From positions 161,820,001 to 161,884,000 of the forward strand of contig OX597816.1 in the NCBI GenBank assembly GCA_951406725.2: a stretch of 64,000 nt of DNA, in the 5' to 3' direction. Position numbers and translations under genes: made by a program. The notes below the pieces were generated by a model that saw only the letters and a program-made list of their open reading frames with translations, was not told where the DNA came from and did not search any database. Shown here one piece after another: positions 2,918 through 61,094 of this stretch (its first letter is position 1; each line of letters starts with the position of its first letter). Source of the stretch: Octopus vulgaris (lineage: Eukaryota).

Positions 2918-3597
2918 CATAAATATATGCACATATATTTATATATAGACATACGCCCACATACATACACCTACCTATATGCATGTATGCATTTATATAA
3001 ATACACACACATATAGATATATACATATATGTATGCGTGTGTGTGTGTGTGTGTGCATATAATTATAGTAACAAGTTGACGACTCAGATCTGCATTGCCA
3101 AAAGTTTCACAGATGCAAACACCACGTGTCTTCGTGAATGAAGCTGATTGTTATTCAGAAGGCATGACCGCCTCGTCTCTTTCAGTAACATAAATCTGAA
3201 TCGAACAACTTTTAGTACGAACATATAAGAACCAATACGTGAGTTGAGCGGTCTGGTATTCTTTTCTTATTCGAGCATACCTATATACCTATATATATAT
3301 ATCTATCTATATATTCAACAATTGAGGGTAAAATTAATTAATTATTAATCAATTTCACCAAGTGTTCAGTATGCAAAGGGACCATTTAAGGCGAATTCAA
3401 ATTATTACATTATATAAAAGGGCTTAGTAAAATAAATTACTTTGCCGCATACTGAACTCATTAGAAATAGCAGCTAAAAAACTTTTTTAAAGTTATTTCT
3501 AATACTTAAAGAAAATCTCTCTCATATAGTGCTTGTTTAACTCAACTCACGAAAGTTTAGGGGTAAAGACATCAAAAAATCAAATGCAAAGGTTATT

Positions 3598-3649
3598 TGA
3601 GAACGTACGTTTCAAGATTAGTCAACACTACACTTCTATCATCAGCTCA
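3598..3649 (-). ncRNA. Type I hammerhead ribozyme motif (unit 1)
   Basis: Minus strand TGAG-CTGATGA-tAGA..TAGT gttg ACTA..TCTt-GAAA-CGTACG-TT-CTCA; 4-bp stem I, palindromic stem III, GUU site, U.U mismatch at base of stem II. Confidence 0.7.
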
Positions 3650-4158
3650 GAAACTCCATTGGTTTGGATTTGAAAACACTGAAAGTGAGAGCATACCCTT
3701 CCGGCTTCTCATCGCTTTCGAAGATCTGCTCGTAACTAACAGTGCCAACAAACTCAAACATGCAAGCGAAGAATTTCAGTTCTCCCCTTTCCACCAGCGT
3801 GGGTTAAAATCAGCAAACACTATGCTTATTTCGGTAAAATCCGAAGCATTAATTAGAGGGAGATTAATTATAATTTCAACAATTGAGGGTAAAATTAATT
3901 AATTATTAATCAATTTCACCAAGTGTTCAGTATGCAAAGGGACCATTTAAGGCGAATTCAAATTATTACATTATATAAAAGGGCTTAGTAAAATAAATTA
4001 CTTTGCCGCATACTGAACTCATTAGAAATAGCAGCTAAAAAACTTTTTTAAAGCTATTTCTAATACTTAAAGAAAATCTCTCTCATATAGTGCTTGTTTA
4101 ACTCAACTCACGAAAGTTTGGGGGTAAAGACATCAAAAAATCAAATGCAAAGGTTATT

Positions 4159-4210
4159 TGAGAACGTACGTTTCAAGATTAGTCAACACGACACTTCTAT
4201 CATCAGCTCA
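4159..4210 (-). ncRNA. Type I hammerhead ribozyme motif (unit 2)
   Basis: Same motif 561 bp away with one substitution in stem II. Confidence 0.68.
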
Positions 4211-4727
4211 GAAACTCCATTGGTTTGGATTTGAAAACACTGAAAGTGAGAGCATACCCTTCCGGCTTCTCATCGCTTTCGAAGATCTGCTCGTAACTAA
4301 CAGTGCCAACAAACTCAAACATGCAAGCGAAGAATTTCAGTTCTCCCCTTTCCACCAGCGTGGGTTAAAATCAGCAAACACTATGCTTATTTCGGTAAAA
4401 TCCGAAGCATTAATTAGAGGGAGATTAAATATATATATGTACGTGCCATCTCTGACGAGTACATGGTATTAGTTAACAACCCTGTTACCTAATATCCGGT
4501 TATCTAATAACCTGTCTATATGTATATATGTATAAATATGTACATGCATATGAATACACACACACGCCCACACACGCACGCAAACATGCGCACACACACA
4601 TATTTTGAAGTATATTTGCCACCTAAACGTGGCTAACCCTTAAGGTTTGATGCCACTGTTGCTTGTAGCCCCAGGAATACATTTCCAGCTGGCTATAGAC
4701 ACACTACATATATATATATTTATATAT

Positions 4728-15338: not shown

Positions 15339-15381
<43 letters not shown>

Positions 15382-15383
<2 letters not shown>

Positions 15384-15654
15384 TAGGTGAATGAATTATC
15401 CTAGTATGGACAATTCGGTTAACCGATACCCGGGTAGCAAATTCACGTCAGAAAATTATCACTATGGACTCCATGTGGGCAGTCATCTAAAAGTTTTTGT
15501 TCGTCATGATGCTGACATAAGTTCCTTGTCTTTCCTGATGAGAAGGCGGCATAATGCACCCTTTATTCCTTCGGAATTAAGAATATGCAGTCTTCGAAAC
15601 ATATGTCGAGAGTAAAGGAATTTTGTTAAAATCGTCGTTCGACTCCATTCTTTC

Positions 15655-15660
<6 letters not shown>
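15382..15660 (+). mobile_element. Small hammerhead-bearing element in (TA)n (Penelope pLTR-like)
   Basis: (TA)n on both sides; 5' and 3' ends homologous to 40836-41083. Confidence 0.7.
15530..15612 (+). ncRNA. Type I hammerhead ribozyme
   Basis: CTTTC-CTGATGA-GAAGGC..GCATA...TATGC..GTCTTC-GAAA-CATATG-TC-GAGAG; all stems pair; GUC site. Confidence 0.85.
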
Positions 15661-15698
<38 letters not shown>

Positions 15699-15703
<5 letters not shown>

Positions 15704-15784
15704 ACGAGAGGATGATAACAGTACATACATTATATATATATATATATATATAATGTATGTACTGTTATCATCCTCTCGTCCTAT
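15699..15784. repeat. Perfect palindrome centred on (TA)n
   Basis: ATAGGACGAGAGGATGATAACAGTACATACAT-(TA)n-ATGTATGTACTGTTATCATCCTCTCGTCCTAT. Confidence 0.9.
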
Positions 15785-16377
15785 TTTTAGGATTGCATGA
15801 AGGCATCAGACGTGTTAAAAAATGCTGTTCTCATCTGAGCTGTTTTTATTGCATGAAACTAATAGTAGCTCATAGAAATATATATTGCGCTTATTAAATA
15901 GCACACACACACACACACAGGTATAAACGTCAGTTTGTTAGAAATAAATTTAATACCTACACAGATTAATATATTGGCTGTAAGCTCCTTTCAGGACTTC
16001 ATCCCTTATTGTACCTATAATTGCTCTTTCGTAGCGTGAAAGGCGTTTGAAGAGCTGATATCTTATATTGGAGCATTAGCTCAATTTCCGCTTGTTTATT
16101 AAGAATTTTCAAATGTCGTTTCAATCCTCCACACATCTAGCAGGGTTTTTTTGACAGACATTGCATTGAAACTAGTCAACCGGAATGTGATTCTATTAGT
16201 TCATGTATGCCATACCCATATAGGTATACTGATGCAATCTCATACCAGCGTGAGATATGCACAATTTTGTAAATAAAGAACAAGGAATGAGAGTCTCGCA
16301 ACACTATTGATGTACATTAGTATACTCTAATATACATGCGTACATTCATATATACATGCATTCATGCATACGCACAA

Positions 16378-21252: not shown

Positions 21253-22452
21253 TTCAAAGAACTCAATTGTTAAAGGGGAAGTGTTGTGGATGATCTTAAA
21301 AACCAGGTCTTCCTGTAAATTCGTTAGTTCCATTTCTGCAGTACTTTATTTTGTAACCAGAGGTTCGAAAATTGGTCAGCTACCACTGGCACCATCTATC
21401 ACATCAACCAGCAATGAATTTACATGAAAGCAGTTCTTGTAATTTATCTTTGCATTCTTCAAATTTGTGCTTTTTTTCTTTTAATTCAATATCAGGGAAT
21501 GAAGGAATGGATCTACTCTCCACCTGAGATCAGGAAAGTGATTACCATTTTTTTGATAATATTTCTTTGAAAAAACTCATTTTATTCTGAAAGCCGAAAA
21601 TTATTTAAAGCCAGAAATACAATCTGATCGTTTCCCTGGAGTGCCAAGTTGAGAATTCGTGAATGATTTATTCCATCAGTTAAGAATATCAGCTTTTGCA
21701 TCCATTCATCATTTTCCAACTGAGGAATATTTTCTTTAAGAAAAGTAATAATAGATTCCAAAAGATCCACAACCACATTCAAGACCCTGCTGGTTGACAG
21801 CCACCTTACAATGTCTTAGGTACTTCTCTGGGTTTATCTTCACGCTCCGGTTCATCCACAGAATTTCTGAAACGTCGATGGATCTTCTCAATTAAGCGGA
21901 TAAAGTTGAAAATTTGAAGAACTGCTTTCGTAACTAATTCATACTTGAAGTATCTGGCGGCCAGGTATTCAAAATAAATAATGCAATGAATTGGTAGAAA
22001 TTCTAGAAAACTGAGATCGCTTTTCATAAGTTTATTAAGCCTGATTTCTCCTCTCCACCTCATCATTATAAGTGTTCCATTTGTTGCAACACTTGATGAA
22101 TTTAATCAGTGAAACACCGACGTTTCTTAAGGCTCTGTTCGCTGCGTATTTAATGTTAACACTACGAGTTAGAAGTTATATTTAAGGAGATGGAACGGAC
22201 AAATGTAAACTTTAAACTTTTCAAGAGCAAATCTGAACGAAAGGGAATTCTTTAAATTATTTTGCACTTTGTCTGTAACATCAACCCTGATGTAGAAAAC
22301 ATGTGTTTCTGTAGCATTTCCAAGACAGTTACTTCTGCTATTAGTCGTTGAAGTTTTGTGTTTTGTAGATATAACGCAGCAGCAATTTCAGTCATATTCT
22401 TCTTATTAATTTCTCCATCAAAATAGAGACACGAACAATATTTCCCATCATA

Positions 22453-22628
22453 CATTATTTACATTATTTACATTCTCGGATATTTGTACTCATCTTGTTT
22501 GTTGTTAACACAACGTTTCGGCTGATATACCCTCCAGCCTTCTTCAGGTTTCTTGGGGAAATATCGAACCTGGGTTCTCATTCCTGAGGTATTCTTCGAT
22601 GTTGTTGTTGTTGTTGTTGTTATTATTA

Positions 22629-22704
<76 letters not shown>

Positions 22705-22896
22705 CATTATTATTATTATTATTGTTCAGATCACTGCTTGGAATCGAACTCAGAATCTTGGGGTTAGTAGCCCGCGCTCTTAACCACTACGCCACATGCC
22801 CGTTAACAACAAACAAGATGAGGACAAATTTCCGTCGAATGTAAATAATGTAAATAATGTACGTAATTCCTCATCTCTTAAATATAGAACTGTATA
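22453..22896 (-). mobile_element. tRNA-headed hammerhead-containing SINE-like element with inverted 3'-end copy and 10-bp TSD
   Basis: TSD TCCCATCATA at 22443-22452 and 22897-22906; tRNA-like head 22727-22801 (A box TGGCGTAGTGG, B box GAGTTCGATTCC); (AAT)n; hammerhead; 22802-22861 is an inverted copy of 22451-22509. Confidence 0.8.
22507..22552 (-). ncRNA. Minimal type I hammerhead (Penelope-type, loopless CG stem III)
   Basis: GAAAC-CTGAAGA-aGGCTG gagggtatat CAGCC-GAAA-CG-TT-GTGTT; one mismatch in stem I. Confidence 0.7.
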
Positions 22897-43269: not shown

Positions 43270-43368
43270 TGTTCCCTGACGATACATTGCAGTTAAGTAT
43301 CCTAATTCGCTTGGGACATCTAATGCTGAGTTCCAATTAACTACAATGGCGAAACGTACGTAGGAACA
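43270..43368 (+). ncRNA. Type I hammerhead ribozyme
   Basis: TGTTCC-CTGACGA-taCATTGcAGTTAA...TTAACTaCAATGgc-GAAA-CGTACG-TA-GGAACA; 6-bp stem I; first two stem II pairs mismatched. Confidence 0.7.
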
Positions 43369-48938: not shown

Positions 48939-49551
48939 TGCTAAACCCTTAATTGCTTAGTATTACTTAAATTTTCCTCGAATGGGGCTTTTACATGCCG
49001 AAGACTACTTGGTGTAATTGATAATTATTCCAAATTAATTAATTTCACCCTTCATTGTTACTGATAACCATATTCATCCCAGTAAATGACCACAGCACTT
49101 TGTCTTGGCTACACGCGGGTGGGAAGGGACTGGTGACACAAACTTTCATTCAAACTTTGAATTTGGTGATACTGGCTGTGGCTTCTAGCTCGCTCTGATA
49201 CTGAGTTGAGTTGGTGCCTTCTAGTATCTCAAAATTCAATATACAATCATTCATGATTGTTCGTATCCTGCGCTGATGAGAGAAGAAGTATGGGTAAGGT
49301 CGAATTATCTAATTCTTATGCTTTCCTAAGACTTGATCTCGAAACGTACGTCCGTAGGTGACTTAAAACTGTATGATAGATTGCCGTTAATTCATTCTCT
49401 CTTACCTGTTTGTGTTCGCCTTTCAAATGCTGTGTTTTTGCTGAGATCTCCCTTTTAGTAGAAGAAATAGCTATAATCTCTTTGACTGCTATTTCTAAAT
49501 TCGGTGTGCGGTAAGTCAATTCGTTGCTAAACCCTTAATTGCTTAGTATTA

Positions 49552-49555
<4 letters not shown>
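48939..49555 (+). mobile_element. 586-bp hammerhead-bearing monomer plus 31-bp terminal redundancy, in (TA)n (retrozyme-like)
   Basis: TGCTAAACCCTTAATTGCTTAGTATTACTTA at 48939-48969 and 49525-49555; homologous to the 561-bp unit. Confidence 0.85.
49267..49358 (+). ncRNA. Type I hammerhead ribozyme
   Basis: CCTGCG-CTGATGA-GAGA..AAGT...ACTT..TCTC-GAAA-CGTACG-TC-CGTAGG; canonical GUC site. Confidence 0.88.
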
Positions 49556-60165: not shown

Positions 60166-60253
60166 TATGTAGGTCCCGGGTTGAGTCGGGGTTAACCACA
60201 GTAAATAAGGTACTCAATACATAGCAGAGTAAATTAATTTATTTTATAGAAGG

Positions 60254-60304
60254 AGCTTCTACAGGACTAGAACTGTTTCATTCAAATGAAATCATCAGGA
60301 AGCT
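60254..60304 (-). ncRNA. Type I hammerhead (minus-strand mirror copy)
   Basis: Exact reverse complement of 60317-60367. Confidence 0.7.
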
Positions 60305-60316
60305 TGCTGGCCAGCA

Positions 60317-60367
60317 AGCTTCCTGATGATTTCATTTGAATGAAACAGTTCTAGTCCTGTAGAAGCT
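60317..60367 (+). ncRNA. Type I hammerhead ribozyme motif
   Basis: AGCTTC-CTGATGA-tTTC attt GAAt-GAAA-CAG ttctagtc CTG-TA-GAAGCT. Confidence 0.7.
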
Positions 60368-61094
60368 CCTTCTATGAAATAAAATATATAGATAGATAGA
60401 TAGATAGAGAGAAGAAGAGAGGGAGAGAGAGAGAAAGAGAGGGTACCATTGACTACGACTGCCTGACTCCTTTGTTTTAAAAAAACATGCAGCCATTTTC
60501 CTAGTTTACCAACGGTACCAAGGTCACACAGTTTGGGACATGTCACATCGTAATCGGCTTTGGCGAAGGCCTTACCCGAGTCGATATATATCACGTCTAC
60601 AATTGAACGGCTGAGCTTTCATGGTATTGTAGCTGTATGTGGTGGCTCCCTCATGAGTGAAAGCCATGCCTCATTTTAGTGAACACGTCATTTTCTTTTA
60701 GAAATCTGACCAGCTTCCTTCTGACAATGCATCTCATGGCTTTGCCGACATATGAGGTTTCAGAGATAGACCTGTAATTTGTTTCATCTACTCTGCTTCC
60801 TTCTTTGCGGATAGAGCATCTGATATATTCTTTTAATATTTTGGGAAGTTTGCTACTTTGCGAGGAAATTCTGGAAATGTATCTCCAGTGATTTTGCGAG
60901 AGCTTGCTTTCTTGCATGCCTTTCAAAAAAATAGCTGGAAGACAAACACGGCCTGTCACTGTGTTCAAGTTCATCGCATTAATGGACGATATTATACCCT
61001 TTTCTTTTATGTCAATGTAATCGATGGTTGTCTCTTCCTTGTGTGGATCTGAAATATTGAAGAAAGATGCCAAGTTTTGTTCTAGATAAGAGTA

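Follow-up and report, generated by a model that had tools for sequence, protein, structure and literature searches.

A predicted RNA fold outside the hammerhead is shared by two diverged retrozyme-like repeats of Octopus vulgaris

The window analysed here is a stretch of 64,000 nucleotides of Octopus vulgaris DNA (GCA_951406725.2, contig OX597816.1, positions 161,820,001 to 161,884,000 of the forward strand). It is AT-rich, microsatellite-dense and animal-type in character, with a repeat landscape that I take to resemble that of coleoid cephalopod genomes, and a direct-repeat search of the whole window was dominated by microsatellites. Two elements within it are described in this study. The first is a tandem dimer of a 561-bp unit on the minus strand (3314..4429), with (TA)n on both flanks. 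Its units, placed in register, span 3308-3868 and 3869-4429, the dimer being about 6 nt short of two full units; they are 99% identical, and three of the 6 differing sites lie at the outer edge. The second is a 586-bp monomer on the plus strand (48940..49525), which shows circular permutation with respect to the 561 unit. It has (TA)n before it, and after it a Penelope-type tail of 30 nt (49526..49555), which exactly repeats the first 30 nt of the copy, and then (TA)n again. Such an element-derived tail is found in the 586 copy only, the 561 dimer having none. All four element ends adjoin (TA)n, tracts that are very common in the window, and the GC content of the units is low (34% and 38%).

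A circular global alignment of the 561 minus strand to the 586 plus strand gave 307 identical columns out of 624 (∼50%), and the best local BLAST piece an E-value of 4e-7. Both units are best explained as copies of a single non-coding repeat with a hammerhead, and have diverged and become circularly permuted with respect to each other. Neither of the two unit-derived frames scanned had a Pfam match, and the same was true of all 128 frames scanned out of the 134 selected complex reading frames of the whole window (0/128), so that neither a reverse transcriptase frame nor a partner Penelope sequence was found there. No third member of the family was found within the 64-kb window. A target-site duplication was ruled out as the origin of the 30-nt repeat, because this repeat is homologous to internal 561 sequence. 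Neither insertion starts or stops at the hammerhead site, so the template would have been a circle or an uncut multimer, and the permuted 1.05-mer represented by the 586 copy is compatible with either.

All three units possess a type I hammerhead core (CUGAUGA, GAAA and an NUH site, with three helices) and a palindromic helix III, with one core per unit, on one strand only, in copies integrated in genomic DNA. The motif of 561 unit 1 (3595..3653, minus; CUGAUGA 3645-3639, GAAA) has C-GUAC-G as its helix III and a predicted cut after GUU at 3602. That of unit 2 (4156..4214, minus; CUGAUGA 4206-4200) has a U-U at the base of helix II and a predicted cut after 4163. In the 586 copy (49267..49358, plus; CUGAUGA 49273-49279, GAAA 49341-49344), helix I is 6 bp long, helix II spans ∼60 nt, and the cut is predicted after GUC at 49352. 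The 561 hammerhead, with its GUU site, has a weak predicted fold (z +0.9). Rfam returned no match at gathering score for the units, and no hammerhead family among the 25 weak matches in 3000-4700.

Other hammerhead-like sequences were seen in the window. An element of ∼280 bp (15372-15657, plus, core at 15535), with a palindromic helix III CAUAUG and (TA)n on both sides, is unrelated in sequence to the 561/586 family. Cores at 43276 (plus), 61489 (minus) and 16575 (minus) have a long helix II and the helices III CGUACG, CGAUCG and CACGUG, respectively, and gave no profile match to the family. A compact hammerhead at ∼22450-22850 (minus, core at 22547) lies downstream of a tRNA-like head, at which ARAGORN called no tRNA, and of an (AAT)n tract; an inverted copy of its 3′ part lies upstream, as in Penelope inverted insertions.

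By their sequence, the 561/586 elements show the anatomy of non-LTR retrozymes combined with a Penelope-type insertion signature, and as animal retrozymes they belong to an element class that is already known. They share with metazoan non-LTR retrozymes (Cervera and de la Pena 2020, PMC7229834; Li et al. 2026, 10.64898/2026.07.22.740005) the non-coding tandem or monomeric repeats with one type I hammerhead per unit, the GC content under 45%, the short palindromic helix III and a strongly self-paired predicted circle. The units of 561-586 nt are longer than the circles of 170-400 nt tested for metazoan retrozymes, but fall inside the span of 51-972 bp covered by the 2026 survey. They differ in their long helix II and in the shared structured domain outside the ribozyme, and are known here from DNA. 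With the pseudo-LTRs and non-autonomous derivatives of Penelope elements (PMC4209133; PMC8557442; PMC11167929) they have in common the type I hammerhead with palindromic helix III, the head-to-tail copies, the 30-nt element-derived tail and the insertion into (TA)n; unlike Penelope elements, the units neither contain nor lie near a frame for reverse transcriptase or endonuclease.

Of the 24 listed sequencing runs, 20 contained part of the 561 sequence (9 studies, five organisms; one may be the source of the window); no RNA run was listed among these, which is uninformative as to expression. In four runs, 4594, 1795, 601 and 87 contigs matched one unit, with many variants; such counts and variety fit a large family, contig depth being distinct from copy number. 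The head-to-tail joint from 4428 to 3869 was recovered in all four (11, 1, 2 and 1 contigs). All four runs are read as contigs, from which strand, ends and level are not readable. In each of them, the RNA 3′ edge (3869-3887) exceeded the 5′ edge (4420-4429) in summed contig depth by 7- to 40-fold. This hints weakly at a preferred end or at divergence near 4400; depth cannot rank parts of the unit.

The initial annotation had proposed that compensatory changes reveal conserved RNA helices outside the ribozyme, and the pairings that it described are present. On the minus strand of the 561 unit, GTTCAGTATGC (3364-3374) pairs with GCATACTGAAC (3447-3457), forming a perfect 11-bp inverted repeat (hereafter helix B) that recurs in unit 2 (3925-3935/4008-4018); TTCAGTATGC is also found, starting at 3365, one base away from the 3366 originally given. 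When the unit was shuffled 1000 times with its dinucleotide content preserved, 30 of the shuffles produced a perfect 11-bp repeat inside 100 nt. Helix B (3364..3457; 3925-4018 in unit 2; z -3.5), which closes an inner domain, retains a conserved core of 9 bp in the 586 copy. Its arms there, TTCGGTGTG (49500-49508, annotated at 49501) and CATGCCGAA (48994-49002), sit at opposite ends of the copy and, as had been pointed out, are adjacent only in a circle or tandem. From 561 to 586, one A-U pair is swapped to G-C, a U-A becomes U-G and an A-U becomes G-U, and both of these wobbles are mismatches on the opposite strand. A second helix, the 9-bp hairpin A (AGAAATAGC/GCTATTTCT; 3463..3500, minus), is perfect in unit 2 (4024-4032/4053-4061) and in 586 (49463-49471/49488-49496), with a single mismatch in unit 1, at 3493. 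In the 586 copy it lies next to the 5′ arm of helix B (together 49463..49508, plus).

Being identical in both copies, helix A carries no covariation, and helix B shows one two-sided change. Four random substitutions retain all nine core pairs of helix B in 2% of trials, or in 4% when either strand is allowed, and when the inner terminal pair, which breaks, is included and the observed all-transition spectrum applied, P is 0.36-0.48. Helices A and B are real, and constitute weak evidence when taken alone.

Inside helix B, two further hairpins are predicted on the minus strand. The first, B1 (3421..3446; unit 2: 3982-4007), differs from its 586 counterpart by two two-sided changes, one wobble and one break. 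One contig with a loose end before 3991 has ACC for GCC in the B1 3′ arm, as in 586, the partner arm being out of view. The second hairpin, B2 (3381..3392; unit 2: 3942-3953), shows a G-U to U-G change relative to 586, where it lies at 48975-48986, beside the 3′ arm of helix B (together 48975..49002, plus). The loops of these hairpins are complementary, and define a candidate kissing helix (3384..3437, minus) between AUUUA of the B1 loop (3437-3433) and UAAAU of the B2 loop (3388-3384). In the 586 copy, AUUCG (49519-49523) is predicted to pair with CGAAU (48979-48983) on the plus strand, corresponding to two Watson-Crick swaps and no break.

Among the 108-124 candidate stems in the domain, this loop-loop helix is the sole 5-bp stem with two swaps. 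At least one such stem arose in 11-13% of simulations for the domain and in 68-82% for the whole unit. Among the whole-unit hairpin-loop pairings predicted from 561 alone (12 possible, 3 fully aligned), the loop-loop helix has a P of 0.015, and a P of 0.12 when all stems are considered. The nested fold of 561 prefers the hairpins (-25.4 vs -15.9 kcal/mol) and that of 586 prefers a loop-loop rod (-18.5 vs -12.5 kcal/mol), B1 and B2 having near-zero probability in the latter. That each nested fold takes a different half of the model is as expected if both halves coexist as a pseudoknot, though two alternating conformations would equally satisfy both sets of changes. I consider the odds of a kissing loop between B1 and B2 to be about even. 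The modelled B-domain is a three-way junction with a likely kissing loop, like those of the hammerhead viroids.

Two more stems are shared by both copies. Helix C is a hairpin on the minus strand (3327..3359; unit 2: 3888-3920; 586: 49011-49049), with one G-U to G-C change and one shared G-U. The long hairpin D lies just 5′ of the hammerhead (3662..3759, minus; unit 2: 4223-4320; 586: 49157-49239) and is well folded in both copies (z -3.2 and -6.1), its middle helix reading GGCACUG/CAGUGUU in 561 and GAUACUG/UAGUAUC in 586. In a first MAFFT alignment hairpin D was unmapped and the whole-unit pairs looked unconserved (29 kept, 35 broken), while cheaper gap extension aligned it between the two copies. 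Its covariation reached P < 0.05 in one of six settings only. A covariance model of hairpin D and the hammerhead, built from the two near-identical 561 units, scored the 586 counterparts at 9.4 and 10.4 bits (E ∼1), below microsatellite hairpins. Long near-perfect hairpins at 60235-60386 and 15696-15842, unrelated in sequence, were also matched by covariance model, and the former looks like a miniature inverted-repeat element. A purine-rich motif (CACGC-GGUGG-AAGGG; 4351-4367, minus, and 49112-49128, plus) engages in long-range pairing with a pyrimidine stretch in both circular folds.

Circular folding of each unit independently, mapped through a sequence-only alignment, gave 42-46 shared pairs, with 9 changed, and these correspond to helices A, B, C and D. 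For the core helices alone (36 pairs), neither the breaks (P 0.19) nor the two-sided changes (P 0.31) are significant. With the two inner hairpins added, 8 of 47 pairs are changed and kept, four of them on both sides, and 6 are broken, where chance would give 0.8 two-sided changes and 11.2 breaks (P 0.003 and 0.006, respectively). These 47 pairs were predicted from the 561 fold only and mapped by the sequence-only alignment, and a two-sided change at a gap edge (4018/3925) was dropped before the test. A full model of 25 pairs has 14 unchanged, 3 with one-sided changes, 6 with two-sided changes and 2 broken (P 0.0004), but was chosen after seeing both copies. Energies from alifold that contain covariance terms were excluded from the evidence, and the basis for covariation is two independent sequences plus unlinked variants. 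The initial interpretation is therefore supported in part: the data favour selection for an RNA fold on the ribozyme strand, mostly through pairs that the initial annotation had omitted, its own core helices falling short of significance. Pattern scans for relatives gave 6 and 0 loci in viral sequences, 81 stretches in metagenomes, and 0 and 0 in prokaryote genomes. The viral and metagenome matches were dropped as chance, since a profile search of them, which covered 80 of the 81 stretches, showed nothing beyond the pattern among the 15 best rows per profile (best E 0.005, ∼50 nt).

Because the 561 DNA contains helices A and B as perfect inverted repeats, and helix A does not vary between the copies, the conserved block could also be read as DNA, as a hairpin or cruciform, an endonuclease site or an internal promoter, such as that described in Penelope pseudo-LTRs (PMC11167929). 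The 561 unit indeed folds on both strands, its circular fold having a z-score of -5.2 on each. However, the 586 circular fold scores -6.2 on the ribozyme strand against -0.7 on the opposite strand (60 shuffles for each fold), which is no excess, and G-U pairs accumulate on the hammerhead strand only. Both the G-U pairs and the folding scores thus favour the ribozyme strand in these models, and I consider a DNA-level signal to be quite improbable.

The variants among the contigs bear on the same fold, with statistics that rest on the 40 variants listed out of 75. On the ribozyme strand these break 5 predicted pairs against 12.0 at random (P 0.005), and on the plus strand, similarly, 5 against 9.9 (P 0.03). 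Only 3 of 39 listed variant sites fall within the 116 helix nucleotides, where 8.1 are expected (P 0.027); the terminal pairs with variants 3925 and 3935 were excluded from this set, and their inclusion (5/39) weakens the depletion. The common variants at 3925 and 4053 read as G-U pairs in the ribozyme strand and as mismatches in its complement. Pairing at the inner end of helix B is lost with variant 3935 (21-63%), as it is in the 586 copy, and variant 3949, at 1-2% in three runs and in one contig of the fourth, breaks the outer kissing pair. Indels occur in the helix C loop (3902) and elsewhere. Being unlinked, the family variants are unable to show covariation.

These variants also carry a bias: read on the ribozyme strand, A/G changes account for 20 of the 24 transitions among the 40 listed (P 0.0007). 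The A/G share of transitions in the individual runs is 19/27, 21/28, 23/30 and 26/38, a ratio of about 2-3 to 1 over C/U across 3869-4429 that is a possible imprint of RNA editing or cDNA deamination. The stems might accordingly be inherited inverted repeats, with pair-keeping changes produced by mutational bias in an RNA intermediate (A-to-I editing, cDNA deamination); A/G changes make up three of the four in the helix B core, and RNA editing has been raised for mussel retrozymes (PMC7229834). Between 561 and 586, however, the conserved block has 14 A/G and 17 C/U changes, and editing does not account for the coupled U-to-C and A-to-G swaps seen in both B1 and the loop-loop helix. The same bias would arise from selection for G-U in AU-rich helices, and editing would itself require a duplex in vivo. 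Mutational bias is, in my estimation, an improbable explanation for the conserved pairing.

A role for the domain can be proposed from what the DNA directly displays, namely homology, hammerhead cores, inverted repeats, pair-keeping changes, (TA)n flanks, the 30-nt tail and the joints in four runs. Retrozyme repeats are transcribed, their RNAs self-cleave and are closed into circles by a host ligase, and Penelope enzymes are believed to copy them (PMC7229834; 10.64898/2026.07.22.740005). Cleavage was seen in only one of nine elements tested (10.64898/2026.07.22.740005). A short palindromic helix III favours dimeric cleavage (PMC4209133), and Penelope insertions are marked by tails of 30-40 bp and a bias for microsatellites (PMC8557442). 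In one study, a purified Penelope protein made nicks in AT-rich DNA and initiated copying internally, at two positions of the stem-loop to which the tail was bound (PMC11167929). In the octopus elements, multimeric transcripts would self-cleave, probably as dimeric hammerheads, and a host ligase would close a circle of 561 or 586 nt. A Penelope endonuclease would then nick (TA)n, and the reverse transcriptase would start in an AU-rich single-stranded loop of the domain and run round the circle, yielding 1.05-mers or dimers.

The folded domain, a three-way junction with a likely kissing loop, may in this scheme be the platform on which a borrowed Penelope-type reverse transcriptase docks and starts internally, a proposal to which I give slightly less than an even chance. 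Reverse-transcriptase recognition was one of two functions suggested initially, and appears plausible from the sequence. The 586 copy begins in the B1 3′ arm and ends in the B1-B2 linker, both ends lying inside the helix-B domain, and its tail, running from the B1 3′ arm into the unpaired linker, fits the internal start described for Penelope by analogy. The 561 dimer ends ∼13 nt past (3′ of) helix C, outside domain B, which fits less well and leaves the start site unfixed.

Alternatively, the fold could be under selection because it makes the circular RNA compact and stable (resistant to nucleases, with the hammerhead confined to a separate domain), as does the kissing-loop domain of hammerhead viroids, with the reverse transcriptase starting at any AU-rich loop that offers (TA)n microhomology. 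All of the covariation evidence fits such a role equally, and the insertion ends map to two distinct places on the circle, each AU-rich and beside (TA)n. However, sequence is conserved in this domain besides pairing, with 29-38 identical columns per 50 compared to 13-21 in most other blocks and an invariant helix A, as would suit specific recognition. Domain B also contains both ends of the 586 copy. Circle stability is a serious alternative, if a somewhat unlikely one, and a docking and start platform is favoured over it because the position of the 586 tail fits, albeit that of the 561 end less so.

The other function suggested initially, a ligation signal aiding circle closure, would place the domain, as observed, within the circle-forming unit and account for its conservation. 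However, 100-275 nt separate the domain from the cleavage site, hammerhead helix I holds the cut ends, and RtcB closed retrozyme circles in vitro (PMC7229834). On account of this distance and of the RtcB result, a ligation role is very unlikely.

The architecture of the predicted domain can be compared to that of the pelamoviroids (PLMVd, CChMVd and AHVd), which also combine a hammerhead domain with a multibranched kissing-loop domain on one strand (PMC8865084). Pelamoviroids are RNAs that infect plants, carry hammerheads in both polarities and lack a DNA form, whereas the 561/586 repeats have hammerheads on one strand and genomic copies, and the kissing segments are spaced by 41-44 nt in the latter compared to 30-37 nt in the former. 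The resemblance is one of architecture only, and the repeats are not members of that group. A literature search over listings and main-text passages turned up no account of a fold conserved beyond the ribozyme in animal retrozymes, and the kissing loops met in the passages of the papers checked were those of viroids. If the kissing loop is real, it would mean that an element of an animal genome has converged on the architecture of hammerhead viroids.

How animal retrozymes are recognized by the enzyme that copies them is an open question, on which this domain may bear. A review describes, in its passages on animal retrozymes, repeats without a conserved motif pointing to a helper element (PMC7761336), and the 2026 preprint names the mobilisation mechanism as future work (10.64898/2026.07.22.740005). 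The conserved fold and its compensated loop-loop helix indicate which bases could be mutated and then rescued, and make a prediction on insertion ends that can be measured. The most specific form of the proposal, in which a viroid-like kissing-loop domain in an animal retrozyme docks a Penelope reverse transcriptase and offers an AU-rich loop as internal template start, I regard as unlikely on present evidence; if true, this domain would be the missing cis signal by which protein-free RNA circles hijack a telomerase-like enzyme.
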